Shown: positions 138-28,759 of the stretch, in pieces
Numbering within the stretch: the first letter of the stretch is position 1
Layout: the number at the start of each line of letters is the position of its first letter
From: Deltaproteobacteria bacterium
GTDB taxonomy: Bacteria > Desulfobacterota > Desulfomonilia > UBA1062
NCBI GenBank assembly: GCA_029574005.1
Contig: JAKQBR010000308.1
Location: 1-60,334 of the forward strand
Length of the DNA: 60,334 nucleotides
Direction of reading: 5' to 3'
The notes under the pieces: generated by a model
Databases searched by the model: none
What the model was told of the DNA's origin: nothing
Seen by the model: only the letters and a program-made list of their open reading frames with translations
Position numbers and translations under genes: made by a program

Positions 138-1085
138 TTACCATTTCTTGAGTACCACGTCACATGCAACCATGAAGTTTTCAAAATCATAGGATAACCC
201 AACGGTATGCATCGTGGGGGTGTAGCTGGTATAGATCTGGCCGGTGAGCGGTATATTGAGTTGTTTCGCTAAATTGACATTGGCCACGATGGTCAGCGGC
301 TCGACGTCGACCTGGTTGTGATAGCGGAATGAATAGGCCAGCTTCAGCTTCTGCTCGAAGGGCGTTACGAGCAGACCGAAGGTCGGGGCATAATTGCCCG
401 TCACGGTCAAGCCACCCTGCAGCGGTATGGCCTTGTTGCTGGGATCGAGCGTGGTATTGAGCGCGTTCAAGGAACCCTCGCCCCCCACACCGATCGAAAC
501 GCCGCCGCCTGCATACACGAGCTTTTCCAGGACCTCAACCCCAAGTCCGAGATTGATGATCAGGTGATTGACGTAATCGCCATAGGATATGAAGTGCGGC
601 TGGTCGGGTGGGAAACAGCGGATCCGCCAGAGATTATTAAAGTTCTCCGTCAAGGCCAACAGGACCCCGAGGGTCATGTTGGGCAGCTTCACGTATTTGT
701 CGGTTATGCCGTTCAGGTTGGCGGAAAGGCCGATCACCGGAGACCAAAAGTTAAGTCCGTCACCGCCGGCTCCGTCGGTCGGGTCAGAGCGCTCCCTCCC
801 TTCAGGATCATAGACGATCAGATCGCCGCCGGTCACCAGGTTTTTCACCTCGATATTCGGCTTGACATAGAGAAACTCCACGCTCATCTGATTGCCTCTG
901 AGCTGGCCAAGGCCGGCGGGGTTATAGTAGGTTGCCGCATAGTCATCCGCCACCGCCGCGAAGGCCCCACCCATGGCCGTGGCGCGGGCGCCGACGCCGA
1001 AGGCATCGGTCCAGGCATGGGCGGGCAGGGCATAACCAATCGCCATAAGGACAACGAATACAAAAATAACGCTGAATCTTCTCAT
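138..1085 (-). CDS. Outer-membrane beta-barrel, OMPP1/FadL/TodX-like hydrophobic-compound channel (315 aa)
   Basis: Signal peptide ending ALPAHA. The N-terminal block GVGARATAMGGAFAAVADDYAATYYNPAGL is typical of the FadL/TodX family. Amphipathic beta-strand pattern and C-terminal aromatic residue (..LKKW). RBS GAGGGGG upstream. Shorter than classical FadL. Confidence 0.65.
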   Translation of the reverse strand: MRRFSVIFVFVVLMAIGYALPAHAWTDAFGVGARATAMGGAFAAVADDYAATYYNPAGLGQLRGNQMSVEFLYVKPNIEVKNLVTGGDLIVYDPEGRERSDPTDGAGGDGLNFWSPVIGLSANLNGITDKYVKLPNMTLGVLLALTENFNNLWRIRCFPPDQPHFISYGDYVNHLIINLGLGVEVLEKLVYAGGGVSIGVGGEGSLNALNTTLDPSNKAIPLQGGLTVTGNYAPTFGLLVTPFEQKLKLAYSFRYHNQVDVEPLTIVANVNLAKQLNIPLTGQIYTSYTPTMHTVGLSYDFENFMVACDVVLKKW

Positions 1086-1114
1086 GTTAATGAACCCCCT
1101 CAGAAGTTTGTTGA

Positions 1115-1147
1115 GAGTGCGGGGCTGAGATCGTCAGCCCCGCACTC
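1115..1147 (-). other. Perfect 14-bp intercistronic hairpin between the 1021-aa lipoprotein gene and the porin gene
   Basis: GAGTGCGGGGCTGA (1115-1128) pairs perfectly with TCAGCCCCGCACTC (1134-1147), with a 5-nt loop. No U-run follows on the minus strand, so it is more likely a processing/stability or attenuating stem than a full terminator. Confidence 0.5.
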
Positions 1148-1158
1148 ACGTGTTGTTG

Positions 1159-4100
1159 CTAACCCCAGCAGTTGACGACAACCTTCAAGGCATCGAAAAT
1201 CCCATCGAAGAGCCTCGTTCCAGGCTGGAACTCCTGGTTGTGGAAGAATGTGCTCATATCGTTCATGACCCCGCCGAACTCGATGGCCTGGCCGTTATGA
1301 TCCAGGTGGATGGTCTTGAAGACCATGAGCATGACCGGATCCTGGCCGTTATACGACAGGCACATGGACCGGATGAATTCCCACGAGAGCATGTCATCCA
1401 GGTCATCTCCGAAGATCTTCTCCAGCCAATGCAGGTCCAGAGGATTATACGTCTCGTCCGCGTCTATGAGCCGCCACAGCACATCGCCGTTATCGCCGGT
1501 CAGGTCGAACAGGAAGTTCGTCAGGGGCGCGGTGTCGTAGATGCCCGTATCGCCCATCACGTGATTCACGACATCCATCACCGGCGTGTTGTCGTCATAC
1601 TTAAGCGCGCCGGCGCTCGGGTTATAGGTTGCATCGTAGATGCCCATCACCTTATAGCCCAGGGCCTTGAGGTTGAAGATCAGCGGGTTCTCCTTGCCGT
1701 TCACGTCATCCACGAGGTAGTCAATGAACGGCTGGAGCTTGCTGTCGGCGCTCACATAGTCGTAGTCCACGGTGCTGGCATCGATGATCTCATCCAGTCC
1801 GGGCACGGCCGCGGCCAGGTCTGAGGTAATCAGCTCGGCCTTGTCGCAGACCGTCGCCGCCAGATCCGCTGCCGCCGCGCTCACCTCGGTGTGGACATCG
1901 GCCTGGTTCAAGGTGTTGTTCACCAGGTTCCATACCGCGGTGCGATTGCCTTTGAGGCCTGCGCCGAGTTTGGGCAGCACGCCGGTCTGAACCAGGGCGG
2001 CCACATCGTCGCTGTAGAAGATATCTTTCTGCTTGTCGGTCTGATCCGTCGCGGTCATAATCACATCCCCCAGCGTGGCGCAGACCTGTGCCAACGGTTC
2101 ATGGTTGGCGCTGATGAAGGTATACAGATTATCGATGAACCCATCATCCTCGAACAGATCGTCTATGAGCTCCTGGTTGGTCTTGTCGTCAGGATTGAAA
2201 TCATGCGAGGTCAGAAGGTCGCACAGGTGCCTGAGCAGGTTGCTGTCCTCATACGGGGTTGTATTGAGCTTGTAGAGCACGCGCACCAGCAGGTCCAGTG
2301 CCGGATCCGCGATATCGGCATCATGATTGTAGCGCTCGCCCGAGGCGCCCCGCATGAGGTAATAGATCAACCCGTAGCCATACGGGCCCTCTATGGTCTC
2401 GAAGGCCGTACCGGTGTTGGCCTGGCGCAGGGTGCCCTTGTTCAGCCATATGGACATGGGCATGTAGGAGCTCAATTCAACCTCGTTCATGGCGCCGATG
2501 ACATGGATAAGCTGCGAACCATAGTTTATATCGCCGTAATACTGGATCAGCGGACCGGCCAAGGACAGCATGCGGTGATAATGGCCGGAGGTGAATTTCT
2601 TGTTGTTGCTCCCGGTAAAGGTCACGAGAGAGTTCATGGACTCGGTCATGATGCCCATGACATAGTCGGTCAGGGCGAAATTGGTCACGAAGTTCAAGAG
2701 CCAACTCAGTCCAGGGGTTGGAAGACCCATATATCTTATATCCTCGTTGAACCACAACCAGTCCGTTCCCTGCAGCGGATCTGGATAGGGCCGGTATTCC
2801 GCGGCCGAATCGATTGTGTAGGAGCCATGGAAGGATTTCGGATAGGAGTAGCACGACTGGCCCCAGAGATTGACCACGAACTGCAGGATATCGCTGCGCG
2901 TGCTGATGACCGGGCCGCCCGCCTCGCCTTTCTCGCCATCCTCGATGTCGATCAGGGAGAGGATCGCCTCGGTCGGATCGCCGCTCAGGGTATCCGAGAG
3001 GATGCACATGACGTCGAAGATCAGCATGATGGTGCGCATCTCGCTGAATTTCACCGTGCCGGTTTCGGTGGGCTCAAAGTCCTGATTCATCTGGAACATG
3101 GCACGGTACAGCGCATAATCGATCTCGTTCAGGTCTGGGATTGTATTGGTATAGGGGTCGCGCATATTGTATATCCGGGAAAGCGCGCTCGTCGCCCCGT
3201 AGATATTGTCGGCCCCGTCCAGTCCGTCAATGGCGTTGAGCACCCTAAGCATGAAGGCGCTCAGTTTCCCGCGACCCTCAGGCTTGAGGACATCCCCCAG
3301 GCAGTAGAGCAGGCGCTCCATATCGCTCATCGAACGCGTATCCCAGGCATTGTGTCCGTCGGATGCCTTGTTTGTTTTCATGAGGTGCCCGAGCGCGTAC
3401 ATCATCTTGTCAAGATCCTCCTTGATCTTCGGGTCCTCATCATAGAGTTTGTGCAGCGCGCTGAAGGTATCGATATAGAGCGGCAGGTTGTCCATATCCT
3501 CCAGATCCATATCCGGCAGCATGTCTTTCACATCCCCTACGGTGACATCCAGTCCCCGCTGGTCGATCTTGGCATCCAGTGCGTCCCATGCGTCGCGGAT
3601 GGCCTTGTAGTCCGCATTGTCTTCATCCAGGAAACCATGCGCCGCGTTCACCATGGCGCTGAAGTTCTGTCTGGTGAGCTTGCTGGTATCGAAGCCCAGA
3701 TCATTGATGGTGATTCCGTTCACGGCGTCATCGACTATCTGCTTGTCGCAGGCCATGACATAGGCCATCATCGGGAATACATGGGCCGTGAGGATATCAG
3801 GACCGGCGGTTCTGACGGCACGCGTCATGATGTCGCCGACATTGTTTTCGACCATCATGTCAAGCATGGCCAGCCCCGGGCTGCCGGCGGCTTCCTCGGC
3901 CGCTGTTTTCGGCTTCGTGCTGTCCATCCAGTCAACAATATTATTGAGCACACGGACCAGATTGCTGTAGTCCTCTGCCGAGGCATCGCCCGCGCGCACG
4001 GCCGCGTTCATGTTGCTCATCATGTTGTCGACCATGTCGAACATATCCCGCGAACTCATTCCGCCCAAGACCTGATTGAGATACGCATATTGCGTATCCT

Positions 4101-4224
4101 CTCCCAACAGAGACTCGCTCGTCAGACTATCGAGGTCGGGCTCATCGCTCTTACTGGCACACCCTGACAGGCAGCAACTTATGGTGAAGATCGCCAGAAG
4201 CAGGTATCTCATTGCGGATTTCAT
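1159..4224 (-). CDS. Large acidic, Met/Asp-rich lipoprotein of unknown function (1021 aa)
   Basis: Long uninterrupted ORF. Lipobox LLLAIFTISCCLSGC at the N-terminus. AT-rich promoter-like region upstream (4225-4620). I recognise no domain motif. Confidence 0.7.
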   Translation of the reverse strand: MKSAMRYLLLAIFTISCCLSGCASKSDEPDLDSLTSESLLGEDTQYAYLNQVLGGMSSRDMFDMVDNMMSNMNAAVRAGDASAEDYSNLVRVLNNIVDWMDSTKPKTAAEEAAGSPGLAMLDMMVENNVGDIMTRAVRTAGPDILTAHVFPMMAYVMACDKQIVDDAVNGITINDLGFDTSKLTRQNFSAMVNAAHGFLDEDNADYKAIRDAWDALDAKIDQRGLDVTVGDVKDMLPDMDLEDMDNLPLYIDTFSALHKLYDEDPKIKEDLDKMMYALGHLMKTNKASDGHNAWDTRSMSDMERLLYCLGDVLKPEGRGKLSAFMLRVLNAIDGLDGADNIYGATSALSRIYNMRDPYTNTIPDLNEIDYALYRAMFQMNQDFEPTETGTVKFSEMRTIMLIFDVMCILSDTLSGDPTEAILSLIDIEDGEKGEAGGPVISTRSDILQFVVNLWGQSCYSYPKSFHGSYTIDSAAEYRPYPDPLQGTDWLWFNEDIRYMGLPTPGLSWLLNFVTNFALTDYVMGIMTESMNSLVTFTGSNNKKFTSGHYHRMLSLAGPLIQYYGDINYGSQLIHVIGAMNEVELSSYMPMSIWLNKGTLRQANTGTAFETIEGPYGYGLIYYLMRGASGERYNHDADIADPALDLLVRVLYKLNTTPYEDSNLLRHLCDLLTSHDFNPDDKTNQELIDDLFEDDGFIDNLYTFISANHEPLAQVCATLGDVIMTATDQTDKQKDIFYSDDVAALVQTGVLPKLGAGLKGNRTAVWNLVNNTLNQADVHTEVSAAAADLAATVCDKAELITSDLAAAVPGLDEIIDASTVDYDYVSADSKLQPFIDYLVDDVNGKENPLIFNLKALGYKVMGIYDATYNPSAGALKYDDNTPVMDVVNHVMGDTGIYDTAPLTNFLFDLTGDNGDVLWRLIDADETYNPLDLHWLEKIFGDDLDDMLSWEFIRSMCLSYNGQDPVMLMVFKTIHLDHNGQAIEFGGVMNDMSTFFHNQEFQPGTRLFDGIFDALKVVVNCWG

Positions 4225-4537
4225 CTTCAGCCTCCTAATCTCTGTTCATGTTAGTGGTCTATAATGTTATAAACCAATAGCAATAGATATGCCATATGAT
4301 GGATGTTTAAAGGCCATGCGCATGTAAACTATTCCTTCTGGTAAGTTTTTGATTAATGAGGTCATAATTAACGTTTCGTCATTGCAATGAGCAATATAAG
4401 CAGGCCGTCATATTGAGATAATATGCTGCATCGCACCATTCAAGCGCTTCAGTGCAACTTTTTTCCATGGCGTGGGTATTATTTTTCATCCTCTCACAAT
4501 ACTTTGTAGTAAGTAAATACGACATTGTGTCATCCCC

Positions 4538-4575
4538 GGCATCGGTTCATCCCATATCCGGGATGAACCGATGCC
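4538..4575 (-). terminator. 16-bp hairpin downstream of the 479-aa lipoprotein gene
   Basis: GGCATCGGTTCATCCC (4538-4553) pairs with GGGATGAACCGATGCC (4560-4575). It lies about 50 nt after the stop at 4624. The flanking T-run is weak. Confidence 0.4.
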
Positions 4576-4623
4576 TTTCTTGTATCATCCTTCAACCAAC
4601 CCCTGACAACGCCCCCGAACGGG

Positions 4624-6063
4624 TTAATTGCCCGGCAGGCCGACAAAATCCAGATGCACCGGCAAGACGCAGACCGCATCGGTAGGGAGGCTGAGGAGGA
4701 AGTTTTCGAATTCCTTTTCCTGCTGGATGGTCAGGCCTTCACCAGATACCGGCTCCAATTTGGGCACGACGGCTACTCCGGCTAGAACGGCGTCACCCCA
4801 GCCGTCTAATCGCTCCCCCGTGGCGCTGTGCTTGAGCCCCTTCGAAGTCTCGGTCGTGACATTGGTCACCACGGCCACGCCTGGGAAGGGTATCTCGAAG
4901 ACCACCGGGTTGAAGGTGGCGTCAAAGGCCAGGTCTATCTGTCCGGTTTCCAGATCGACCGATCCCCCCAGTGAATGGGTCTCGATCTCGATGCGCACAA
5001 AGCCCAGCCCCGGAACCTCGCTCAGGAAGCGTATCCAGCCGGGTATGAGATCGAGATTCGGGACATTGAACTCGCTGAATTCCACCAGGGCCTTCTTGCC
5101 GTCATCGCTCAGCGTGTACGTACCAATGCCGTAGGACCCAAAGCCGTCGTAGCCGAAGGTCGGGAAGGTGGATATGGAAAGTTCGGCATCTTTACCGACC
5201 TTCATGAACACGCCCATCTCGCCGGTCGCCGGGGTCGGGGAGCCGGGGAATCGCCCCTCTGGAAAATCCAGGTGTGCTTCCATCTCGGTCACCGCGTCGG
5301 TCGGCAGGGATAGAAGCGCGTTGACGAACTCGGCATCCAACGGTTTTTCAGCACTGACGGCCTTGGGTATCTGTGCCACGCCGGCCAAGCGCAGATCGCC
5401 GCGGGCATTGAGCACGCGGCCGGCATACTCTTTTTCCGGGGCGATCTTGGTCCTGGACACACCGGTGTAAAGATCGGTGACCACGGACATTTCTGGATAT
5501 TCATAGCCGAACACGCTGGGTACAAAACGCGCGTCAAAGGAAAGCCTGACCTCGCCTGTCTTGAAGTCGACATACCCGATGAGGTCCTTGGACTTGATAT
5601 CCACCTGGACCGGGATATCAGGCAGGACAGATACCATATGCAGGGGCGGCACCGATTCCGGGGTGATATTCTCTTCCGGGAAGAACAATTCGGCCTTGCC
5701 GTCGCCGATATAGGTCATGGTCCCTTTTACGCCAGGGCCACGATCATTGTAAGGAAAGGACAAGGGGATAAAACCGATGGGCTTCTCAAAATCCTTCCAG
5801 ATGGTAAGGGTGCTGTCCCGGGTTCCCCAGGCATCGCCATCATGGAAGATGTTGTAGCCGATGGTCAGCCTGACCGGCTTGGTCTGTCCGATGAGATCCC
5901 GGTCCTCCAGCGCGGCCTGTTGTTTGTCCTTCCCGGATAAAGCCGTATCGGCGTCGTCGGAACCCGACCCGTTGCAGCCCGCTGCAACCATCAGCGCCAT
6001 CGCGGCGATGATCAAAGCCAAAGAAAACGACAACCGCACCTCGGCGTCCTTCATAGCTCTCAT
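4624..6063 (-). CDS. Lipoprotein with an internal tandem domain duplication, unknown function (479 aa from the ATG at 6063)
   Basis: RBS GAGGAGG lies just before the ATG at 6063, so the track start at 6081 is probably too long. Lipobox ALMVAAGC. Two repeated ~155-aa modules each end in LLSLPTDAV....HLDF. Confidence 0.7.
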   Translation of the reverse strand: MRAMKDAEVRLSFSLALIIAAMALMVAAGCNGSGSDDADTALSGKDKQQAALEDRDLIGQTKPVRLTIGYNIFHDGDAWGTRDSTLTIWKDFEKPIGFIPLSFPYNDRGPGVKGTMTYIGDGKAELFFPEENITPESVPPLHMVSVLPDIPVQVDIKSKDLIGYVDFKTGEVRLSFDARFVPSVFGYEYPEMSVVTDLYTGVSRTKIAPEKEYAGRVLNARGDLRLAGVAQIPKAVSAEKPLDAEFVNALLSLPTDAVTEMEAHLDFPEGRFPGSPTPATGEMGVFMKVGKDAELSISTFPTFGYDGFGSYGIGTYTLSDDGKKALVEFSEFNVPNLDLIPGWIRFLSEVPGLGFVRIEIETHSLGGSVDLETGQIDLAFDATFNPVVFEIPFPGVAVVTNVTTETSKGLKHSATGERLDGWGDAVLAGVAVVPKLEPVSGEGLTIQQEKEFENFLLSLPTDAVCVLPVHLDFVGLPGN

Positions 6064-6118
6064 GATGTCAATCCTCCTCATTCGTATTCATCCGGGGATG
6101 CACGGCATCCCCAAGAGC

Positions 6119-6153: not shown

Positions 6154-6156
6154 GTT

Positions 6157-9513: not shown

Positions 9514-9534
9514 CTCACGATCCTCTTTTACGCC

Positions 9535-9678
9535 CTAGATGAAGTATCTGAACGGCAGATAAGGCACATTCTTGGCAAGATGGATGAGATAGCGCTTCGT
9601 GCTGAGCGAAAGCGTGAACCACTTTCCTACCGCGCCAACGGCCAGCAGGAGCCATGCAAGTTTGACCAGTTTTGACAT
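9535..9678 (-). CDS. Microprotein B (47 aa), paralogue of microprotein A
   Basis: Hand translation: MSKLVKLAWLLLAVGAVGKWFTLSLSTKRYLIHLAKNVPYLPFRYFI. RBS AGAGGAGG lies 6 nt upstream. It is wedged between two flavoenzyme genes, with gaps of 37 and 21 nt. Not in the ORF track. Confidence 0.6.
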   Translation of the reverse strand: MSKLVKLAWLLLAVGAVGKWFTLSLSTKRYLIHLAKNVPYLPFRYFI

Positions 9679-9715
9679 CTCTTACCTCCTCTTTATCGGG
9701 AATAATCTCTTATGG

Positions 9716-11221: not shown

Positions 11222-11296
11222 AGCCTTCTCCTTATAAGACTTTCTGCATGCACATGATATACGATCACTGCATTTGAACACTGTATGACCGAATAA

Positions 11297-11309
11297 TGAC
11301 GCTATGTCA
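11297..11309. promoter_or_regulatory. Operator-like palindrome TGACgctatGTCA overlapping a TTGACA -35-like hexamer upstream of the flavoenzyme operon
   Basis: On the minus strand it reads CTTGACAtagcGTCA. It lies ~75 nt upstream of the ATG at 11221 in an AT-rich gap. Related sites are at 12814, 41429, 4520, 14389 and 14489. Confidence 0.35.
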
Positions 11310-11470
11310 AGTTTTTTATTTATTATTGCGGGGCGCTGCCTGCCTCGGGTCGGAGACAGAAACCGGGAGGTATGGCTTTCATCATATTGTTTTTATTGTT
11401 CATTGAATATATCTTCGATGTCATCAATATCTGACATGATGTTTATTTTACTTGACACACCGGCGAGCGC

Positions 11471-12643
11471 CTAGAGCAGTTTCGCTATTTGGGCCTGCAG
11501 CCAGTTGCCGATGCTCTTTTTATAACCCGGCATATAGGTGTCCATGAAGTGCTGGATGCGCATATTCTCATTCCCGACATCCACCATGAGCTGCCCGTAA
11601 TTTTCCGGCACGTCCCGCCGATCCGCGCGCAAAACCATATGCAAGGCACCGGCCTTACACTTCGAGGCGCATATCCCGCAGCCGATGCAGCGCCAGGGCT
11701 CGTGGATCAGTTTTTTGTCGTATATATGCAGCGCTCCGGCCGGACACACCTTGGCGCAAGCACCGCAGGACGTACAGAGGCCGGCATCGAAGCGCACGAC
11801 ATAACGGCTGTTGACAAACATGGCCGGGGTGTTGAACCTCGTCATGGTGGCGAGTGATACGCAGCAGCAGGCGCAGCAGTTGCAGCAGATAGCCGGATTC
11901 TCGATATTGTCCGTAAAGTGAACCAGACCGGACTCTTCGGCGCGATCGACCGCCTCCAATATTTCCTGTTTGCTGACCATGCGGCCGAAGCCCACCTTCT
12001 CCACGTAACGGGCCGCCGCGCCGAACTGCATGCACACGTCCATGGGATGCGAACAGCGCTGACCGACGTACTCCTTCTGCCTCCTGCAGGCACAGGCCGA
12101 GGCCAAGGACCAGGCATCCTGGCGATCGATGATTTCACGAATGCTCTCCGACGGCAGAACACCGGTTTTGATATCCGGCAGACTCTCCTGAATCGGAATG
12201 ATGCGAAACACCTTTGATGGGCCGATGAGCATCTTCTGTGAATATTCAAGATTATAATACTGCTCGAAGAGCTCAGCGAACCTGCGGGTCCTTTCGTCAT
12301 CAGGGGCCTTGTACATGAAGGCCTCAAAGATGCCCGGCATCATCGGCATGACGATATATTTACGGTCCGCGCCGTCCCCGAAGGCGAATATCACCCCCCG
12401 GTCGGCCAATCTGTCCAGGATAACCCGGACCTCCTCCACCGGGCGGTGCACCCGTCGGGCGACCTTTTCGGCCGTGGGGCTCAGGATCGTTACCTTGCTT
12501 GCGATGAGGGCCTCTTCCTCACTGAACAACAGCTCGAGGATCTCAAGCAGCAGTTCATTGATGACGGATTTCAGCGGGGGCAATTGGTTCAAACGTTTTG
12601 CGAGCAGTTTATGCGCCTTGGTAGCCACGGAACCTCCTATCAA
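11471..12643 (-). CDS. Winged-helix-like N-domain / Cys-rich / 2x[4Fe-4S] ferredoxin-domain protein (390 aa)
   Basis: The C-terminus carries CTSCGACAKVCP and CIGCGICASKCK ferredoxin motifs. Extra Cys clusters: CACRRQ...C.....C and NPAICCNCCACCC. The N-terminal segment LSPTAEKVARRVHRPVEEVRVILDRLADRGVI looks MarR/wHTH-like. Confidence 0.7.
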   Translation of the reverse strand: MIGGSVATKAHKLLAKRLNQLPPLKSVINELLLEILELLFSEEEALIASKVTILSPTAEKVARRVHRPVEEVRVILDRLADRGVIFAFGDGADRKYIVMPMMPGIFEAFMYKAPDDERTRRFAELFEQYYNLEYSQKMLIGPSKVFRIIPIQESLPDIKTGVLPSESIREIIDRQDAWSLASACACRRQKEYVGQRCSHPMDVCMQFGAAARYVEKVGFGRMVSKQEILEAVDRAEESGLVHFTDNIENPAICCNCCACCCVSLATMTRFNTPAMFVNSRYVVRFDAGLCTSCGACAKVCPAGALHIYDKKLIHEPWRCIGCGICASKCKAGALHMVLRADRRDVPENYGQLMVDVGNENMRIQHFMDTYMPGYKKSIGNWLQAQIAKLL

Positions 12644-12936
12644 TTTAACATCACGTCATTTCGAGCATGATGTAGAGCAATTATACCATGTGCTGCTCTA
12701 TCAAGCAATATCAATGCTCAATACGGATTACGCCATGCCTGGCCCCGGCGGCAGGGAGAGGTTCAAGGCTGTCGAAACTACCGATCATGCATTTAATATA
12801 TTGTTTTTATTAATGACGATATGTCTATAAATGGATCACCAATGCGCATGCACCTTGACGGCCCCACGCAAGCCCCCCCATGAATCCCGGCCCTGCGCAC
12901 GGGGGAATAACGGTCTTTGGATTGATACCCGCCGGC

Positions 12937-14298
12937 CTAGCTCTCTTCGAGCTGGTGGTTTAAGAAATAATAGAGGAACCACGACATATTCTCGGCATAC
13001 TCTTCCTTGCTGCACTCCAGGACGCCCATGTTCCTCAGGAAGGTTGAAAAGCTCACGGTTGAAAGGATGATCTGCGCGGCGATGACGGGATCGACGTCGG
13101 TGCAAAAACCCTGCTCCTTGAGGGCGGCGATACGAAGACCCAGCGTTTCGGCGAAGGAGGAGAAATAGCCACGGTAATGGTTGCTGATCTTATCGCTGCA
13201 GAAGGTGCCCTGCAGGATAGCCCAGTTGAATGGGGTATCGAAGATATCCACGATCTGGTAGCTGATCCTTCTGAGTTCTTCTATGGACGACGTGTCCAGG
13301 CGTGCGATGAAATCCTTTGACGTCGCATTGAGCGGATTTATCCTCGAGATCATATTGCTGAAGACCGCTTCGATAATATCATCCTTGTCCTTGAAATAGA
13401 GGTAGAACGTCCCCCGGCTCAAGTCCGCGCGCTTGGCGATATCCGCGATGGTCGTATCGAAGTACCCCTTGGCCGCCAGCTCTTCCTCGGCCGCCTTGAT
13501 CAGCTCCTTGCGGGTCTTCTTATCCTTTTCCGAACCGTTGCGCCCCTTCTTGCCGGTCCGGCGCGCGCCTTTTTCGAGCATAAAGCCTGGGTAGAGGATG
13601 CCGGTGATCGTCTTGGCTAGATCCTCGTGAGTGGCCGTGATCATGCCCATGGTGCTCATCAGAATGGAGGTGGCAATACAGATGGACATGAAATCCGCCA
13701 GGATATCGACATTACAGTCCCGATAGCGCCCTTTCTTCTGCACCGTCTTGAGCACAACCTTGAAGATGTAGGCCGAGTCGCGCACGGCCTGCGTCGAGAG
13801 GGCAAAAATCTCCTTGCTCTGCAGCATGCCCTGCACAAGGGCCTTCATAAGGCCGGAGGCCATGGCCAGGGATTCCACAACCGTCCGAATGGTACCCTCA
13901 AACAGAGGAAGCAACTCCGGGGTAAGGGTGACCTTCTGGATATTGATCTGAGAGTTCACCGCATTGGAGATCTGCGGCACCATCTGCAGAAGGTCCTGCA
14001 CCATTGCCTTGAGGATATCGTTCTTGTTTTTGAAATACAGATAGAACGTGCCGTGGCTCACCCCGGCACGCTGGGTGATGGAATCCACATTGGTCAGGTA
14101 ATAGCCATGCTCGCTGAATTCCTTGATGGCCGCATCCAGCAGCCGCTGGCGCGTTTGTTCGCTGGCCACCTGTGTAGGTACAGTATTATATTCCAAGATT
14201 AGCCCTCGTGGGCCTAGTGCTAGCATCCCGGTCGCCGGTCTGTCAACTGTTCGCCTCGACGCATGACCACGGCGAGGTTCTTCACTGCCATCATGCAA
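12937..14298 (-). CDS. TetR-family regulator made of two complete TetR units in one polypeptide
   Basis: Two HTH boxes: TRQRLLDAAIKEFSEHGYYLTNVDSITQRAGVSHGTFYLYFKNKNDIL and TRKELIKAAEEELAAKGYFDTTIADIAKRADLSRGTFYLYFKDKDDII. Each is followed by a ~150-aa ligand-domain-sized region. The true start is uncertain; an alternative is the ATG at 14226. Confidence 0.8.
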   Translation of the reverse strand: MHDGSEEPRRGHASRRTVDRPATGMLALGPRGLILEYNTVPTQVASEQTRQRLLDAAIKEFSEHGYYLTNVDSITQRAGVSHGTFYLYFKNKNDILKAMVQDLLQMVPQISNAVNSQINIQKVTLTPELLPLFEGTIRTVVESLAMASGLMKALVQGMLQSKEIFALSTQAVRDSAYIFKVVLKTVQKKGRYRDCNVDILADFMSICIATSILMSTMGMITATHEDLAKTITGILYPGFMLEKGARRTGKKGRNGSEKDKKTRKELIKAAEEELAAKGYFDTTIADIAKRADLSRGTFYLYFKDKDDIIEAVFSNMISRINPLNATSKDFIARLDTSSIEELRRISYQIVDIFDTPFNWAILQGTFCSDKISNHYRGYFSSFAETLGLRIAALKEQGFCTDVDPVIAAQIILSTVSFSTFLRNMGVLECSKEEYAENMSWFLYYFLNHQLEES

Positions 14299-14382
14299 CG
14301 CCTGGCCGCAACGATCGCGTCGGCATGCGGCGGCAACAATAAGATCTACAGGATCACCTCGATAGCCCGGCCAATCCCTGAC

Positions 14383-14399
14383 TCATAATGACATTATGA
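14383..14399. promoter_or_regulatory. Perfect 8+1+8 palindrome TCATAATGaCATTATGA in the tetR / FAD-operon divergent intergenic region
   Basis: Read directly from the sequence. It lies between the minus-strand TetR gene and the plus-strand gene at 14546, the typical position of a TetR operator. Confidence 0.4.
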
Positions 14400-14545
14400 T
14401 CATTATAGAATGACGGTTCATTTCACGACAGTCCCTCAGCATTGCTCTTGTGTAAACATATAATCGAATGATATATGGATGTCATGACTGACGCTGTGTT
14501 TAGTTTTATCCGCCATAAGATGTCGGTCTTCTTGTATGAGGAGGT

Positions 14546-15946
14546 GTGCGTATGCCGGAAAAAGTATTTGACTGCGTGGTGATCGGTTCCGGGGTCGGCG
14601 GAAGTTGCGCCGCCGCCATGATGGCCCACTACGGCTACAAGGTGCTCCTGGCGGAAAAACGCGCCAATCTGGGCGGCAGGTTTTCAACCATGGAGATCGA
14701 CGGCTTCAAATGCCCCACCGGCGCATTGATCGTCACGCGTGGGACCGAGCTGGAAAAGACCTTCAAGGTCACCGGAGCCGAGTTCGACATCGTGAAGGCC
14801 GCCCAGGTCTCCTGGAAGATCGGCGACACGGTCTACCCGGTCTCCGGCCCTGGTGCGCTCAAGACCCTGTGGTCACTCTTCACCAAGCTGCCGCCCAGGC
14901 TCTACCGCTATGCCTTCATGTCGACGCTCAGACTCTTCGGCGCCATGGGGGAAATACTCTTCTTCAAATTCTTAAACCTGTTCCGCAAGGAGGAGGATTA
15001 CGTCTATCGCCGACATGAGGAAAACCCGGTCACGTTCCGTGAATGGATCGAGAGATACACGGACGACAAGGTCGTGATACAGTCCGTGCACGCCTTCATC
15101 TCGGCCCTGTTCAGCGCCATCAATGACTTCGAATGTCCGGCATCGGATGTCTTCGCCTTCGGCGCCAGCATGGCCAACCCCTTCAAGCCCCACACCTTCG
15201 GCTTTGCCCGTCACGGCAACGTCGAGCTCATGAAGTCCCTGGCACGGGTCGTCACGCAGAAAGGCGGCGAGGTTATGACCGAGACCGAGGTCAAAGAGAT
15301 CAAGATCTCGAATGGCGTGGCCACCGGCGTGGTCCTCGTCGGCCCGCAGGGCGAGTTCGAGGTCGCGGCCAAGACCGTGATCAGCAATGCCGGGCCCAGC
15401 GCCACCATGAACATGGTCGGCGAGCGGCACTACCCTGAGCCCTATGTGCGCAAGCTTAAGCAGACCCTGAGGCCGGCGCCCATCGTCATGGGCAACATCG
15501 CGAGCGACGTGCCGCTGATCGACCACAAAGGGCTCGTGGTCATTACCGGCACCAAGACCATTGTGGGCGCCGTAAACCTGACGTACCACACCAGGGATGT
15601 CGCCCCTGAAGGCCAACACCTCCTCTGGACCTTTGCCACGCCCGCCACCTGCACAAGCAAGATCGACAAGGAGATGGAGATCCGCCACCACATGGAGGAC
15701 CTGGAGACCGCCTTCCCGCTCTTCAAACAGCACGGCCGCGTGCTAGATCTCATGGTCAAGGACATCGACGACGATCTGCCCTGTTTGCGCACCTGGCCGG
15801 GGTATGACATGCCAGTGACCACCCCGATCCCCAACCTCTTCAATGTGGGCGACGGCGTCAAGGACTTCGGCTGGACGGGTTGCCCGGCCTGCGCCAAGAG
15901 CGCCTGGAAGGTTGTGAAAAAGATCCGCAGGGATTACCCGCTGTAG
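14546..15946 (+). CDS. FAD-dependent oxidoreductase, phytoene-desaturase/amine-oxidase superfamily (466 aa)
   Basis: RBS GAGGAGG. Motif VFDCVVIGSGVGGSCAAAMMAHYGYKVLLAEKRANLGGRFST (GxGxxG ... E ... GGR). Confidence 0.8.
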   Translation: MRMPEKVFDCVVIGSGVGGSCAAAMMAHYGYKVLLAEKRANLGGRFSTMEIDGFKCPTGALIVTRGTELEKTFKVTGAEFDIVKAAQVSWKIGDTVYPVSGPGALKTLWSLFTKLPPRLYRYAFMSTLRLFGAMGEILFFKFLNLFRKEEDYVYRRHEENPVTFREWIERYTDDKVVIQSVHAFISALFSAINDFECPASDVFAFGASMANPFKPHTFGFARHGNVELMKSLARVVTQKGGEVMTETEVKEIKISNGVATGVVLVGPQGEFEVAAKTVISNAGPSATMNMVGERHYPEPYVRKLKQTLRPAPIVMGNIASDVPLIDHKGLVVITGTKTIVGAVNLTYHTRDVAPEGQHLLWTFATPATCTSKIDKEMEIRHHMEDLETAFPLFKQHGRVLDLMVKDIDDDLPCLRTWPGYDMPVTTPIPNLFNVGDGVKDFGWTGCPACAKSAWKVVKKIRRDYPL

Positions 15947-16075
15947 GCAGGATGGAATGTCCGGACAATATCAGAAATTGCCAGCCGGTGGGTTGGCCTG
16001 GGACGCTGATCGATCATCAGAGATGCGATCGGTCAGCTCTCTGTTTATGCCCAAGGAGACTGAGAGGAGACTGAG

Positions 16076-17413
16076 ATGGGTGCCACGTATGATGCCATCG
16101 TCATTGGGGCCGGTATCGCCGGTTTAGGAATCAGCGGGATTCTGGCCCGCGCGGGGAAAAAGGTGGTTTTGCTGGAAAAGAACTCCCATGTGGGAGGAAG
16201 GGCCGCCACCTTCAAAAAGGACGGCTGGGTGCGCAGCATCGGCCAGCATGCCGCCTTGAAAGGCCAGCGATACGACACCCTGCTGCAGACCCTCGGGGTT
16301 GACTGCCCGCGCGAGTATTTCGGCGACCTGCAGATGTATTATGAAGGCCAGTTCAAAAGCATACTCGACATCATCCCCACGTTGGTCGCCCGCTTGAGTC
16401 CGGAAGACAACCTGAGGATTGCTGAAAAGCTGCTCAACCCGGCCGTCGATCTGGATGCGCTCGACGACATCTCCGCCGATGTATGGATTAAAGAGATCAT
16501 AACCGATGAGGTCTTGCTGGACTTCATGCGCATGGCAACGGTTATCATGACGACCATCCCCTTCATGAAGGATATGGCCGCCAGCACCCTGAAGGAATCC
16601 ATCATGATCATTACGCGCACCATGGAAACCTGGCTGGCTGCCAACGGCATGGGTGAATTCATGGAGGCCATGGCCGCCGACATCCGGCGGCATGGCGGAG
16701 AAATTCGGACGAACACCCCGGTGGAAAGGATCCTCATCAAGGACAAGAAGGTTCTCGGGGTTCTGGCCGGGGAGAAGATTGTAGCGGAAGTGGAAGGGGA
16801 GTTCGGCAATGTCACCACGATCGAGGCGCCGGTGGTCATATCCGCCATCCCCGTCTGGGAGATCTTCAAGATCGCCCCACAGGACGAGTTCCCGCAGGAT
16901 TTCGTGAAAAAGGCCTGGAATGTGTCGGCACACACCGCCAATCTGGGGCTTACCGCCGGGCTGAAAAAATCGGTCTACGAAGGCCGCGGATTGCTCATGG
17001 TCGATTATCCGAGCCTCGGATACCCGGGCAGCATCTTCATGCCCACCAATGTCTGCCCGAACCTGGCCCCTGCTGGCTACCAGCTTTTTGAGGCCTCCAT
17101 CATCTGCGACTACGACATCCGCAAAGACCCGGAACAGCTGCACCACATGATGGCCATGCTCAACAAAGACCTGCAGACATGGTTCCCCGGCTGGGACAAG
17201 CAGGCACTATGGATCAAGAACTACTTCCATTATGAAGAACCGAAACGCACCCCGGGTCGCGCCGGCAGGCATCGCCCCGATTACACGGCCGCAGGGATTC
17301 AGGGGCTGTTCCTGTGCGGGGATTCGATCGGCTCCCGCTGCCTGCCGGGGATGGAGTGCGCCGCCGATTCGGCCATGACCTGCGCCGAGATCGTGCTCGG
17401 CACGATGAAATGA
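16076..17413 (+). CDS. FAD-dependent oxidoreductase, phytoene-desaturase/amine-oxidase superfamily (445 aa)
   Basis: RBS GAGGAG. Motif YDAIVIGAGIAGLGISGILARAGKKVVLLEKNSHVGGRAATF and C-terminal LFLCGDS. Confidence 0.8.
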   Translation: MGATYDAIVIGAGIAGLGISGILARAGKKVVLLEKNSHVGGRAATFKKDGWVRSIGQHAALKGQRYDTLLQTLGVDCPREYFGDLQMYYEGQFKSILDIIPTLVARLSPEDNLRIAEKLLNPAVDLDALDDISADVWIKEIITDEVLLDFMRMATVIMTTIPFMKDMAASTLKESIMIITRTMETWLAANGMGEFMEAMAADIRRHGGEIRTNTPVERILIKDKKVLGVLAGEKIVAEVEGEFGNVTTIEAPVVISAIPVWEIFKIAPQDEFPQDFVKKAWNVSAHTANLGLTAGLKKSVYEGRGLLMVDYPSLGYPGSIFMPTNVCPNLAPAGYQLFEASIICDYDIRKDPEQLHHMMAMLNKDLQTWFPGWDKQALWIKNYFHYEEPKRTPGRAGRHRPDYTAAGIQGLFLCGDSIGSRCLPGMECAADSAMTCAEIVLGTMK

Positions 17414-17488
17414 TCGAATCAATACGGATATGAGCGCCCAGAAAGATCCTGCTAGGGATTAACTACTGCGCAAACAAGGAGGTATGCA

Positions 17489-18598
17489 ATGAAAAGGCTA
17501 TCTATACTCATGGTTGCTGTCATGTTCTTCATCGCGGCATGTTCACAGAAGGACGGTGACAGCCGGCAGAATTCGACCGATACCAAGACATCTGCCCAGG
17601 AAACGTCCGCAATCGATTACTCCCGGTACGAAAACCTTGACGTGGATTCGTACGCTGATTTTAATTCACTGCCCGCCGATCTGAAGGAAGATGTCTATGC
17701 AAAGGCATTGCTCCTTGCCGGTCTGATGGATCGATCCAGAGGATGCAAAGAATGCAATGCTGTTTCCGCCGGCATCTATTCCACGATCAACTCGGTGGCC
17801 TGCCTGCTGTACCATTGCTGGAAGCCCATGGTCTCGTGCGTCATCGACGGAGAGTGCAGGACGCAGCTCATGTCTTTAGGCGACTGCGTTCTCAAAGGCG
17901 GCGACGCAATGATGCTGTGCTGTATCGACGTCTTTTCAAAGCCCAACGAGAAGCTCATGGCAATGATGTCGTCCCTGGGAGACAGCGGATGCATGCCTGA
18001 ACCCGTGCTGAACTGCGCCCTCCCCACGAACAGGAACCAGATCGCGCCCGTCTCCCTGGCGGACCTAGAAGGCGACTGGTATGTGGTGCGCGGATTGAGC
18101 CCCGTCTATGACTGCTTCAGCGGCCAGAGATATTCGTTCCACCAGATAAGCGAGACCGTATCGACGTACGACTATACCTACTTCCCGAAGGACAAGGGAA
18201 CCCCGACACTGATCAAATGCACCACCACCGCGATTCCTTTTGCCCCGGGCGAGACAGAGATCTTTCCGGGGCGCTTCCGCGTCAACTACACGGCCTATGG
18301 GATGCCGGGCGTTGACGACTGGTTCGTCCTGAGCCATCCAAAGAGAGATTACCTGCTGATATTCTACTGCGGGGCAAACGCCATGGACTCATACGTGGGG
18401 GGCATCGTGCTCAGCCGTTCGCTCGATACCGATATCCCCAAGGATATCCTGAATGCCTTTGAGGACGCGCTGGCCAATGCCGGCATCGCCGATCCGGTTT
18501 CGCTGGCGGATTTCTGCACCCCGGACAATTCGGGGATTACCTATGACGATACCGCTGAGAGCTGGGAATCGACCCTGTTTCTGTCCTCACTCTACTGA
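17489..18598 (+). CDS. Violaxanthin de-epoxidase (VDE)-like lipoprotein: Cys-rich N-domain plus lipocalin domain (369 aa)
   Basis: RBS AAGGAGG and lipobox FFIAAC. There are 11 Cys between residues 86 and 176 (ACLLYHC....C....C...). The lipocalin part (GDWYVVRGLSPVYDCFSGQRYSFH; DDWFVLSHPKRDYLLIFYCGANAMDSYVGGIVLSRS; FCTPDNS) matches, from memory, the plant VDE blocks [59 protein letters not shown] and TDNTCGPEP. Confidence 0.7.
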   Translation: MKRLSILMVAVMFFIAACSQKDGDSRQNSTDTKTSAQETSAIDYSRYENLDVDSYADFNSLPADLKEDVYAKALLLAGLMDRSRGCKECNAVSAGIYSTINSVACLLYHCWKPMVSCVIDGECRTQLMSLGDCVLKGGDAMMLCCIDVFSKPNEKLMAMMSSLGDSGCMPEPVLNCALPTNRNQIAPVSLADLEGDWYVVRGLSPVYDCFSGQRYSFHQISETVSTYDYTYFPKDKGTPTLIKCTTTAIPFAPGETEIFPGRFRVNYTAYGMPGVDDWFVLSHPKRDYLLIFYCGANAMDSYVGGIVLSRSLDTDIPKDILNAFEDALANAGIADPVSLADFCTPDNSGITYDDTAESWESTLFLSSLY

Positions 18599-24595: not shown

Positions 24596-26269
24596 ATGGG
24601 CACACGCGACAAACACAGCCAAGAACCAGCCATCCGGCCCATCATCGACATCGCGGCCTCCATCGGACTTACTGAAGACGACCTGGAAACCTACGGCCGC
24701 TACAAGGCCAAGGTGAGGCTGGAGACCATAAGGCGCCTGAAGCGCCGCGAGAACGCCAACCTGATCCTGGTCTCGGCCATGACGCCCACGCCGGCCGGCG
24801 AAGGCAAGACCACGGTTTCCATCGGGCTGACCCAGGCCCTGGCGCGGCTTGGCAAAAAAACCGTGGCGGCGCTGCGCGAACCGTCCCTGGGCCCGGTCTT
24901 CGGCATCAAGGGCGGGGCCACGGGCGGCGGCAGGTCGCGCGTGCTGCCCATGGAAGACATCAACCTGCACTTCACCAACGACTTCCCGGCCGTGGAGAGC
25001 GCCCACAACCTCCTCTCCGCCATCCTGGACAACACCATCTTCCACGGCAACCCCTTGAACATCGACCCGCGCAAGGTCACCTGGCGCCGGGTGCTGGACA
25101 TGAACGACCGTTCGCTGCGCGACATCGTGATCGGCCTGGGCGGCTCCACCAACGGCGTGCCGCGCGAGACCGGCTTCGACATCGTTCCGTCGAGCGAGAT
25201 CATGGCCATCCTGTGCCTGTCGCGCTCGTACAAGGAGCTGTAGGACAAGATCCGCAAGATCCTTGTAGGCTTTACGTATGACGACAAGCCCGTGGCCGCC
25301 GGCGACCTCAAGGTCGAGGGCGCGGTGACCTCGCTCTTGAAATACGCCCTGCTGCCCAACCTGGTGCAGACCACCGAGGGCGTGCCCGCCATCCTGCACG
25401 GCGGGCCGTTCGCCAACATAGCCCAGGGCACCAACAGTATCATGGCCACGGACCTGGCCTTGAAGCTCTCCGATTTCGTGGTCACCGAGGCCGGCTTCGG
25501 CTTTGACCTGGGCGCGGAGAAGTTCTTCGACATCGTGGCGCGCTACGGCGAACTGAACCCCAAGGTCGTGGTCCTCGTGGCCACGGTGCGGGCGCTCAAA
25601 TACCACGCCGGCGTGGCGCGCGAGGACCTGAACATTCCCAACCCCCGCCTGGCGGTCCTGGGCCTAGCCAATCTGCGCAAGCACTACGAGAACATCGCCA
25701 AGTTCGGGGTGGAATGCATCATCGCCTTGAACCGCTTCAGCTCGGATACGGACGATGAGATCAAGGCCGTGGTCGAGGCCTGCGAGAACGAGGGCATGAA
25801 CATAGCTCCGGCCGACATCTTCGAACATGGCGGCGAAGGCGGCCTGGAGCTGGCCGAAAAGACCGTCCGCCTGGCCGAGAGCGTGAAGACCGCCTACCGC
25901 CCGCTCTATGACTGGAACAGCCCGGTGGAGGACAAGATCTTTACCGTGGCCAGCGAGATCTACGGGGCCGTCTCGGTCGACTACCAGCCCCTGGCCAAAC
26001 GCAACCTCGACCTCATCAAACGCTTTGGCTACGACAAGCTGCCGGTGTGCATCGCCAAGACCCAGCAGTCGCTCTCGGACAACCCCGCGCTTTTAGGCCT
26101 GCCGTCGGACTTCATCGTCACGGTCAGAGAGATCAAGATCGCCTCCGGGGCCGGTTTCCTCATCCCCATCACGGGCGAGATTTTGCGCATGCCCGGGCTC
26201 TCCAGGGTGCCTGCCGCCTACGGCATCACGATCGACGATGACGGCAATATCACCGGCATCAGCGGGTAA
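24596..26269 (+). pseudogene. fhs: Formate-tetrahydrofolate ligase interrupted by one in-frame TAG (25241-25243)
   Basis: ORFs 24596-25243 and 25292-26269 are in the same frame. Together they read as a full-length FTHFS ([52 protein letters not shown]). The TAG sits in ..SYKEL*DKIRKILVG.., where FTHFS sequences I recall have Lys (AAG to TAG is one substitution). Confidence 0.9.
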
Positions 26270-26284
26270 GGGAAGGACGCTCCC

Positions 26285-27628: not shown

Positions 27629-27660
27629 CAACCCGGAAACGAATCTGTTAGCTCTCTGGC

Positions 27661-28752: not shown

Positions 28753-28759
28753 ACACGCC

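Follow-up and report, generated by a model that had tools for sequence, protein, structure and literature searches.

The gene under study lies on contig JAKQBR010000308.1 of the Deltaproteobacteria bacterium assembly GCA_029574005.1, and the whole 60,334-nucleotide stretch of that contig that was analysed is referred to here as the window. It stands on the plus strand directly behind two flavoprotein genes, and across a divergent intergenic region the opposite strand carries a regulator gene, an Fe-S protein gene, further flavoprotein genes and genes for envelope proteins (Table 1). An original prediction, made from the nucleotide sequence without database searches, had proposed that this gene encodes a bacterial homologue of violaxanthin de-epoxidase (VDE) that is exported as a lipoprotein. 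The features on which the proposal was built are present as described, namely an open reading frame (ORF) of 369 codons for amino acids, the blocks ACLLYHC at residues 104-110, GDWYVVRGLSPVYDCFSGQRYSFH at 195-218, DDWFVLSHPKRDYLLIFYCGANAMDSYVGGIVLSRS at 276-311 and FCTPDNS at 342-348, and 11 Cys within residues 86-176 (C86, 89, 105, 110, 117, 123, 133, 144, 145, 168 and 176). The plant VDE blocks that had been quoted for comparison also proved accurate, as they match PDB entry 3CQN and the plant representatives in our collection.

The Pfam VDE lipocalin domain (PF07137) is matched by residues 103-347 with 89.8 bits (E 2.4e-25), the gathering score being 25.7, and the match runs from profile position 2 to position 242 of 242. 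VDE is the only family returned by the Pfam scan of the protein, with no generic lipocalin family among the matches, and an NCBIfam scan of the same protein gave no family. A phmmer search of the PDB finds the Arabidopsis VDE lipocalin domain (3CQN, E 3.9e-10). The AlphaFold2 model calculated from a 14-sequence alignment (mean pLDDT 77.8, pTM 0.74) contains helices within residues 92-166, eight β-strands within 195-309 and a C-terminal helix at 318-329. When this model is compared with the PDB by Foldseek, ranks 1-4 are occupied by 3CQN and 3CQR, the VDE domain at pH 7 and pH 5, with target TM scores of 0.69-0.75 (0.75 for 3CQN), and ApoD, the crustacyanins and E. coli Blc (1QWD) follow behind VDE as significant matches. 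The similarity is far beyond chance, and the window protein is a VDE-family homologue. A significant family match, a Cys-rich domain and a lipocalin fold closest to that of VDE were thus all found, and they bear out the central claim of the original prediction. Blc is likewise an outer-membrane/periplasmic lipoprotein with a lipid-binding lipocalin barrel; however, it has neither a Cys-rich domain nor the VDE catalytic residues, and it is a much weaker structural match than VDE. The Pfam result, together with the Cys-rich domain and the catalytic residues, led us to reject a generic Blc-type lipocalin.

Relative to Arabidopsis VDE (Q39249; 3CQN/3CQR), the window protein shares the order of a Cys-rich helical N-domain followed by an eight-stranded lipocalin barrel, and both proteins would reside at a membrane surface in an oxidising compartment of extracytoplasmic type. 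In the window protein a lipoprotein anchor takes the place of the lumen transit peptide, and there is an additional N-terminal helical extension at residues ~40-100. Its N-terminus, MKRLSILMVAVMFFIAAC, is a canonical lipoprotein signal in which the consensus [LVI][ASTVI][GAS]C follows a positively charged n-region and a hydrophobic core (MKR-LSILMVAVMFF-IAAC). Lipidation of Cys18 is predicted from this signal sequence, and the residue is unchanged in 14 of 14 close relatives. A strict form of the lipobox rule selects 10 of the 15 members of the close clade, none of 28 plant VDE proteins, none of 10 proteins of a clade with Glu in place of a catalytic Asp (the Glu-type clade, see below) and 3 of 84 others. 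Residues 1-39 have pLDDT values below 50, which fits a disordered signal and tether, and the AAGGAGG ahead of the start codon is a strong Shine-Dalgarno sequence. At the other end, the protein terminates 21 residues past the DNS motif and does not have the Glu-rich domain of about 100 residues found in plant VDE, as had been predicted; a short extra C-terminal tail is common to 5 of 13 relatives, and the remaining 8 stop earlier. Taken together, membership of the VDE family and export as a lipoprotein are close to certain.

How secure is the bacterial origin of such a gene? Published work (Coesel et al., cited in our literature comparison) states that VDE has no prokaryotic homologues, and a 2026 Plant Physiology review assigns VDE, VDL and VDR to photosynthetic eukaryotes and describes the xanthophyll cycle as absent from all prokaryotes. 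Our full-text literature search found no paper describing bacterial VDE-domain proteins. Contaminating eukaryotic DNA from an alga or plant, chimerism of the assembly or decay to a pseudogene would each account for an apparent exception, and the binning of short contigs that carry this gene is indeed unreliable, since a 99%-identical copy lies on a 1.7-kb contig (L007, JAKLHS010000145.1; P and L numbers are our identifiers for representative proteins and loci) in a 'Caldiserica bacterium' metagenome-assembled genome (MAG). Mis-binning most likely explains that assignment, because elsewhere the gene is found in a deltaproteobacterial context of ~60% GC. In the window, however, bacterial genes flank the gene on either side within a 60-kb contig, and at least eight contigs, recovered from independent samples, encode the identical protein next to the same neighbours, the source samples of the contigs with VDE-like genes being sludge and digester metagenomes. 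The gene has a lipobox and a Shine-Dalgarno sequence, its composition (GC 55.5%, GC at third codon positions (GC3) 0.72) is like that of the rest of the 18-kb cluster, and the ratio of non-synonymous to synonymous substitution rates (dN/dS) is 0.12-0.16 against orthologues at 87-90% identity, so that the gene is under purifying selection. Contamination, chimerism and pseudogene decay are excluded by the shared neighbours, the cluster-like composition and this dN/dS, and an artefact of any of these kinds is refuted for practical purposes. Moreover, NCBI names the other window genes as belonging to a 'Deltaproteobacteria bacterium' MAG, and these genes include acetyl-CoA decarbonylase/synthase, carbon monoxide dehydrogenase (CODH), formate-tetrahydrofolate ligase and a CheY-CheX regulator. 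The acetyl-CoA decarbonylase/synthase and CODH genes fit an anaerobe with the Wood-Ljungdahl pathway, and the bacterial, anaerobic host assumed in the original prediction is upheld. GC3 across the putative lipid-processing cluster (138-18598) is 0.71-0.84, as compared with 0.87-0.90 in the Wood-Ljungdahl genes at 25292-36586, which is compatible with an older horizontally acquired island.

To compare the protein with VDE at the level of individual residues, positions were converted to Arabidopsis mature numbering via the plant representative P0136 (Sarcandra), and the role-bearing residues given in the 2026 Plant Physiology review were scored in four groups of representatives. Asp177 (D276 in the window protein), Tyr198 (Y293), Trp179 (W278), Asp114 (D208), Gln119 (Q213), Phe123 (F217), Asp98 and Asp206 are all kept, and the equivalents of Asp177, Trp179 and Tyr198 are invariant in 14 of 14 close representatives and 28 of 28 representatives of a compact clade. 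The catalytic Asp and Tyr whose conservation had been proposed as a check on the original prediction are thus in place. Replaced are the pH trigger His121 (Y215) and its partner Tyr214 (L308), Arg138 of the dimer salt bridge (F232), His168 (Y267) and Asp117 (S211), five positions that show little or no variation (16-20 of 20) among the plant-type VDE representatives. Of the violaxanthin contacts Phe123 is retained, while Gln153 has become T246 and Phe155 has become A248, and the window subclade has no counterpart of the C118-C249 disulfide, which 5 of 14 close relatives and most compact relatives do have. Identity to the Arabidopsis barrel is 26%, as compared with 50-84% for members of the VDE clade. 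By this alignment the catalytic core is intact, and the features that make plant VDE pH-gated, dimeric and violaxanthin-specific are gone. In a short-form bacterial lineage represented by three metagenome contigs (L021-L023, Ga0116147/Ga0116192) the near-universal Trp179 is replaced by Val, with Asp177 and Tyr198 kept, which hints at a different ligand in that lineage.

Seven of the ten conserved Cys of the VDE N-domain are likewise kept, with C105, 110, 117, 123, 133, 144 and 168 corresponding to Arabidopsis C9, 14, 21, 27, 37, 46 and 72, and at each of these positions 130-132 of the 133 representatives have Cys. Both partners of a pair predicted in the 2026 review, C33 and C50, are gone in the long subclade to which the window protein belongs (S129 and F148), and the equivalent of C65 is Ser162 in the window subclade and Cys in its relatives. 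From the alignment, the N-domain is clearly homologous to that of VDE, with what would be an altered disulfide pattern.

Do these residues serve chemistry, or does the barrel simply hold a ligand? Most lipocalins are passive carriers (2026 Plant Physiology review), and the window protein could shuttle a hydrophobic molecule across the periplasm or hold it at the membrane, as a non-catalytic protein resembling Blc. It is a lipoprotein as Blc is, generic lipocalins including Blc are significant structural matches to its model, other envelope proteins are encoded in the locus, and the gene neighbourhoods of its relatives are variable, as would be expected of a general-purpose binder. Nevertheless, D276, Y293, D208 and Q213 lie inside a hydrophobic barrel and are invariant in the 14 close representatives and nearly all of the 28 compact ones at 25-45% identity, which is hard to explain without chemistry. 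The Pfam match is moreover to VDE and to no generic lipocalin family, and the disulfide-rich N-domain, which the review describes as essential for VDE activity, is retained. For these reasons a carrier role is considered improbable.

The next question is which of the characterised enzymes the protein resembles. The chromalveolate violaxanthin-neoxanthin tautomerases VDL1 and VDL2 belong to the same superfamily, share the domain core and have no Glu-rich tail; their lipocalin domain is enlarged, which is a difference from the window protein. At the position equivalent to residue 177, VDL and VDR have Glu, and the window protein has Asp (D276), so the VDL/VDR hallmark is absent. VDR had been listed in the original prediction among enzymes established to act on epoxy-xanthophylls; this does not hold, as the 2026 review gives the substrate of VDR as not known. 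In its sequence, then, the window protein belongs to the VDE superfamily and yet falls outside VDE in the strict sense (by clade, pH apparatus, substrate contacts and acidic tail) as well as outside VDL/VDR (by Glu177).

Database searches place the protein in a wide superfamily. A word-index search returned 13 clusters at 90% identity, all with PF07137, and such searches with the single protein, with a close-clade alignment and with a 40-sequence diverse alignment found essentially the same 13 proteins. An exhaustive hidden Markov model (HMM) search of 1.84 billion representatives gave 481 clusters (50% identity) at E <= 1e-3 and 183 at E <= 1e-10, among them a plant VDE 84% identical to the Arabidopsis barrel. 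A scan of a genome collection found two loci, one of them the probably mis-binned 1.7-kb contig described above, and a metagenome scan found seven short contigs with VDE-like genes. Verified bacterial contexts are the window, a 4.8-Mb contig of a Spirochaetota MAG, and the loci of P0012, P0013, P0015, P0018 and P0019. Lipoproteins of the bacterial type are a small and concentrated part of the superfamily, with a strict lipobox in 13 of 137 full-length representatives. Neighbour-joining trees with 60 bootstrap replicates recover the window clade in 60/60, its union with a short sister form (P0013, P0016) in 53/60, and a plant/algal VDE core in 51/60 from which the window clade is excluded. The Glu-type clade, which has the motif E-N-W, is recovered in 60/60, separate from the window clade; it includes a protein of the haptophyte Haptolina and for this reason corresponds to the VDL-like proteins. 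The deeper branching is supported in only 7/60, and for this reason the tree does not show whether transfer went from bacteria to eukaryotes or the other way.

Beyond its close relatives, the window protein also resembles a set of compact proteins (from non-photosynthetic eukaryotes such as Blyttiomyces and, among bacteria, P0014, P0015, P0018 and P0019) that have the same succession of signal, Cys-rich domain and barrel and no acidic tail. These proteins share Asp at position 177 and have Met, Leu or Tyr in place of His121; they are all uncharacterised, are 25-45% identical to the window protein, mostly have no N-terminal extension and lie in unrelated gene neighbourhoods. Unlike the window protein, most of them retain all ten Cys and the C118-C249 pair. 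One MAG (GCA_041306705.1; L003 and L015) carries two VDE-like paralogues, the 385-residue long form P0012 and the 300-residue short form P0013, the latter without the N-terminal extension. The chytrid Blyttiomyces sp., a non-photosynthetic host, has the VDE-domain proteins P0025 (KAJ3314929.1) and P0027 (KAJ3323542.1), in one of which the VDE domain is the C-terminal part of a 1393-residue protein, and a further compact member (L026) lies amid eukaryotic genes. With these members the family is wider than 'photosynthetic eukaryotes' on the eukaryotic side too.

If the catalytic core is functional, what reaction might it carry out in this host? In plant VDE, according to the 2026 review, Asp177 protonates the epoxide and the reductant ascorbate is positioned by Tyr198, Asp114 and Gln119. 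The window host is without ascorbate synthesis, which the cited literature describes as absent in prokaryotes, and without known violaxanthin. The equivalents of Asp114 and Gln119 are also invariant in the Glu-type clade, and since the characterised member of that clade needs no ascorbate, these two residues are not markers of reductant use. That member, PtVDL1, catalyses a reversible, redox-neutral tautomerisation of an epoxide to an allenic alcohol and needs neither ascorbate nor a cofactor; because it works in this way, ascorbate-free chemistry is possible in the VDE fold. By this analogy VDL1 provides the best functional model for a bacterial enzyme with the VDE fold.

The closest alternative in chemical terms is that the window protein is a true reductive de-epoxidase, the leading example given in the original prediction, acting on imported epoxy-xanthophylls (violaxanthin, antheraxanthin, diadinoxanthin or the fucoxanthin type) or other epoxy lipids with a periplasmic reductant other than ascorbate, such as menaquinol, a thiol or a cytochrome. 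Asp at position 177 agrees with VDE and differs from VDL/VDR, the residues assigned to ascorbate binding (Asp114, Gln119) are kept together with Tyr198, sludge and digester samples offer plant or algal biomass rich in pigments, and the locus encodes a FadL/PorV-like outer-membrane protein and CrtI-family enzymes, a family that acts on carotenoid-type polyenes. Several observations speak against such an activity: prokaryotes do not synthesise ascorbate; Asp114 and Gln119 do not mark reductant use; the violaxanthin contacts Gln153 and Phe155 are replaced by Thr and Ala, and Arg138 by Phe; and the gene has no neighbour that codes for a periplasmic electron donor, its redox neighbours being cytoplasmic. 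A reductive de-epoxidase is therefore rather unlikely, though it deserves more weight than a carrier. A new substrate context for the bacterial protein, as suggested in the original prediction, is reasonable, and is reinforced because the Gln153 and Phe155 contacts and the pH switch are lost and prokaryotes have no ascorbate synthesis; the epoxy-carotenoids or other epoxy lipids that were named as substrates are guesses.

Table 1 Features of the VDE-like gene and of the divergent locus around it (window coordinates).
Feature	Position	Strand	Basis and remarks
VDE-superfamily lipoprotein gene	17489..18598	+	369 aa; open ORF and translation; NCBI HQP29891.1 'hypothetical protein'
Ribosome-binding site AAGGAGG	17476..17482	+	6 nt 5' of ATG; read from the intergenic sequence
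Predicted lipoprotein signal peptide and lipobox MKRLSILMVAVMFFIAA/C	17489..17542	+	Cys18 codon 17540-17542
Cys-rich helical N-domain	17795..18016	+	aa ~103-176; Cys aligned to Arabidopsis, helices in model
Lipocalin barrel	18050..18484	+	aa ~188-332; eight strands and helix, Foldseek match to 3CQN
Barrel residues	D208 18110-18112; D276 18314-18316; W278 18320-18322; Y293 18365-18367	+	Equivalent to Arabidopsis D114, D177, W179 and Y198
FAD466, divergent Amino_oxidase-family flavoprotein, 466 aa	14546..15946	+	First plus-strand gene; Pfam and NCBIfam matches below equivalog cutoffs
FAD445, divergent CrtI-superfamily flavoprotein, 445 aa	16076..17413	+	Directly upstream of the VDE-like gene; Pfam Amino_oxidase 78 bits, full length
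Perfect 8-1-8 palindrome TCATAATG-A-CATTATGA	14383..14399		In the 248-bp divergent intergenic region
Tandem double TetR-family regulator	12937..14298	-	Two complete TetR_N helix-turn-helix domains in one polypeptide, E 1.6e-32
Fe-S protein, 390 aa	11471..12643	-	Cys-rich middle and 2x[4Fe-4S] ferredoxin domain at aa 282-340; Pfam Fer4 families
Three paralogous CrtI-family flavoprotein genes	6310-7857, 8005-9513, 9716-11281	-	TIGR02734 crtI_fam 281-297 bits against a cutoff of 238
Predicted lipoprotein, 485 aa	4624-6081	-	Lipobox-like N-terminus; the two locus lipoproteins carry ...MVAAGC and ...CLSGC
Predicted lipoprotein, 1021 aa	1159-4224	-	Lipobox-like N-terminus; between the CrtI paralogues and the outer-membrane protein
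FadL/PorV-like outer-membrane protein	138-1085	-	Marginal N-terminal matches: Toluene_X 29.8 bits (cutoff 29.7), PorV

The three plus-strand genes are separated by gaps of 129 and 75 nt, in neither of which a promoter/terminator scan found a terminator-like site; the 75-nt gap ahead of the VDE-like gene fits co-transcription with FAD445. FAD466 and FAD445 are 21% identical, and the best PDB match of FAD445 is an uncharacterised oxidoreductase of M. mazei (3KA7). On the minus strand, the product of 8005-9513 matches CrtI (4DGK) over its full length with E 2.4e-52, and the three crtI_fam paralogues are 43-48% identical to one another. PDB matches of the Fe-S protein are restricted to its ferredoxin domain, and the Pfam and NCBIfam scans of the 485- and 1021-residue lipoproteins gave no family. 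All five flavoproteins have GxGxxG within ~30 residues of the start (near residue 10 in FAD445) and no signal peptide, which places them in the cytoplasm, on the opposite side of the membrane from the exported VDE-like protein. The envelope genes at 138..6081 may be part of the same system, as judged from strand and adjacency.

The palindrome, TCATAATGACATTATGA, is followed by a second short inverted repeat, TCATT-ATAG-AATGA, and is a candidate operator for the double TetR protein. It occurs once in the window, where none would be expected by chance, is identical in the conspecific loci L009 and L010 and is partly kept in the ~90% orthologous locus L004; the gene callers in L009 and L010 give the double TetR protein a shorter start that yields 410 residues. 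Scanning 12-21 kb with Rfam gave no RNA element.

No phytoene synthase, squalene synthase or cyclase gene is present in the 60-kb window, and there are eight Amino_oxidase/CrtI-superfamily genes, namely the three crtI_fam genes, the two divergent ones and a second group of three at 44868-46685 (605 residues), 46818-48245 and 48229-49656 (44868-49656 overall). This is an unusual expansion for an anaerobe. A carotenoid biosynthesis cluster was rejected as the primary reading on the missing synthase and cyclase genes and the eight Amino_oxidase paralogues. Downstream of the second group lie a 3-beta-HSD/epimerase-like gene (50042-51031) and then a DAPG-hydrolase (PhlG)-like gene (51240-52325). 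Elsewhere in the window, formate-tetrahydrofolate ligase is divided between two ORFs, 24596-25243 (N-terminal part) and 25292-26269 (positions 234-555 of 556 in Pfam FTHFS), a split that reflects a frameshift, pseudogene formation or an error of assembly. A 1191-residue fusion of CODH_A_N, CdhC, ACS_CODH_B_C and CdhD (acetyl-CoA synthase beta with a delta-like part) at 31673-35248 adjoins a Prismane/CODH gene (29629-31680) and the gamma subunit gene (35252-36586).

The best precedent for the neighbouring genes is probably the limonene dehydrogenase CtmAB of Castellaniella defragrans, which consists of two adjacently encoded COG1233 flavoproteins of the phytoene-dehydrogenase family, 27% identical to each other and clustered with the ferredoxin CtmE. 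CtmAB oxidises terpenes at the allylic position without oxygen, and an obligately anaerobic deltaproteobacterium has the closest relatives of this enzyme. The likeness is one of gene layout and family only, in that FAD466 and FAD445 are adjacent and an Fe-S protein is encoded in the same divergently transcribed locus, together with the three crtI_fam paralogues; the Fe-S protein here has 390 residues and 2x[4Fe-4S], as opposed to a 2Fe-2S ferredoxin, and the ctm cluster is not reported to contain a VDE-like gene. A sterol delta-24 desaturase was dropped as a precedent, its authors stating that it has no similarity to phytoene desaturases.

The significance of this layout for the VDE-like gene depends on how far the association is conserved. 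Relatives at 86-100% identity keep the complete arrangement. In L013, whose VDE-like protein P0011 is 51% identical, a full-length FAD445 orthologue (47%) lies directly upstream on the same strand and is itself preceded by a DUF362 protein gene, and in L022, a short-form locus at ~49% identity, a full-length homologue of the Fe-S protein (45% identical) lies directly upstream of the VDE-like gene. The neighbours in other lineages are a TRAP DctP gene, a divergent or downstream alpha/beta-hydrolase gene and, in two lineages, a convergent enoyl-CoA hydratase gene, all of which fits lipid catabolism; in still others the flanking genes are unrelated. A phmmer comparison of the flanking proteins with each other and with the window proteins found nothing recurrent beyond the FAD445 and Fe-S orthologues, and a family-wide conserved operon was rejected for this reason. 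The association of redox partners with VDE-like genes, seen in three of eight lineages, is suggestive, not decisive. The original prediction had spoken of an operon with two FAD oxidoreductases. Two Amino_oxidase flavoprotein genes on the same strand with terminator-free gaps are indeed present, and an operon of these with the VDE-like gene is plausible; the pairing, however, is kept in some lineages only, the flavoproteins are cytoplasmic, and the locus is larger than was described.

A further possibility is that the neighbours are incidental, and that the protein is a stand-alone enzyme of envelope-lipid maintenance, acquired from a microbial eukaryote by horizontal transfer and acting on the cell's own damaged or oxidised isoprenoid quinones or on hopanoid-type lipids. 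Such an origin would agree with the small minority that bacterial-type lipoproteins make up among the full-length representatives, with the compact relatives in chytrid fungi and on a contig with eukaryotic genes, with neighbourhoods that differ in most lineages, and with a GC3 of the whole cluster below that of the core genes. On the other hand, two different components of the locus recur beside VDE-like genes whose products are at about 50% identity, the 75-nt gap is free of terminator-like sites, and the 7/60 support of the deep branches gives no direction of transfer. We regard this possibility as unlikely, much as we do a carrier function.

We hypothesize instead that the window encodes a VDE-type lipoprotein performing ascorbate-free chemistry on isoprenoid-type lipids as part of a TetR-controlled locus, a reading to which, taken whole, we assign a probability of roughly 0.45. 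In this model the protein would, after export, carry a lipid at Cys18 and be held by a disordered linker at the periplasm-facing membrane, and its disulfide-rich N-domain would form in the periplasm. In topological terms the periplasm is the counterpart of the thylakoid lumen, and disulfides can form in both. The barrel would supply an acid/base core consisting of the proton donor Asp276, Tyr293, Trp278 and the Asp208/Gln213 pair. The loss of the pH trigger, the dimer salt bridge, the Glu-rich tail and two violaxanthin contacts suggests that such an enzyme would most likely be constitutive and accept a different long hydrophobic substrate. Protonation could then drive the opening, removal or rearrangement of an epoxide, or of an allylic or tertiary hydroxyl, on an isoprenoid or polyene lipid, and this reaction would proceed without ascorbate or any external reductant, as in algal VDL. 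The VDE-like gene would be the last gene of a TetR-controlled divergent locus for the oxygen-independent uptake and processing of isoprenoid-type lipids, with a division of labour between the VDE-like protein in the periplasm and the flavoproteins in the cytoplasm. That the window protein itself catalyses a reaction on an isoprenoid-type lipid is a tentative proposal and falls somewhat short of even odds.

Several observations weigh against this hypothesis. By alignment, the residue at position 177 is Asp, as in the reductive VDE, and not Glu, as in the cofactor-free VDL, and an anaerobe is not expected to make epoxides. The Val that replaces the equivalent of Trp278 in L021-L023 suggests that substrate binding differs even inside the bacterial group. 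A redox partner stands beside the VDE-like gene in only three of eight lineages, the Fe-S neighbour of L022 is absent in the ~90%-identical loci L021 and L023, and the broader bacterial members P0015, P0018 and P0019 lie in unrelated gene contexts. Finally, with the flavoproteins and the Fe-S protein predicted to be cytoplasmic and the VDE-like protein exported, any coupling between them would be indirect.

The importance of the finding has its limits, since a Pfam scan readily detects the protein, the bacterial group has few members and the gene contexts provide partial evidence. Still, a complete two-domain core with its catalytic residues exists in bacteria of at least two phyla, which contradicts the published generalisation. 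The 2026 review describes the origin of the VDE enzyme as an open question, and the bacterial proteins provide a handle on where the VDE fold with its Cys-rich domain arose and which way it was transferred between bacteria and eukaryotes, on the minimal catalytic unit without pH switch, dimer interface and acidic tail, and on the role of a VDE-type active site without ascorbate or, presumably, violaxanthin. The window itself holds a locus that is a candidate for processing isoprenoid or carotenoid lipids anaerobically, and few enzymes with such a role are known. A more far-reaching idea, which we consider quite improbable, is that prokaryotic VDE-type lipoproteins are an overlooked and possibly ancestral branch of the superfamily that performs an extracytoplasmic, ascorbate-independent step, acting on epoxides or allylic oxygens in the periplasm of anaerobes, in an anaerobic breakdown of isoprenoids and carotenoids run by flavoproteins resembling CtmAB and CrtI. 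If this were true, the enzyme of the xanthophyll cycle would have its origin in a lipid enzyme of the bacterial periplasm and would not be a eukaryotic invention.

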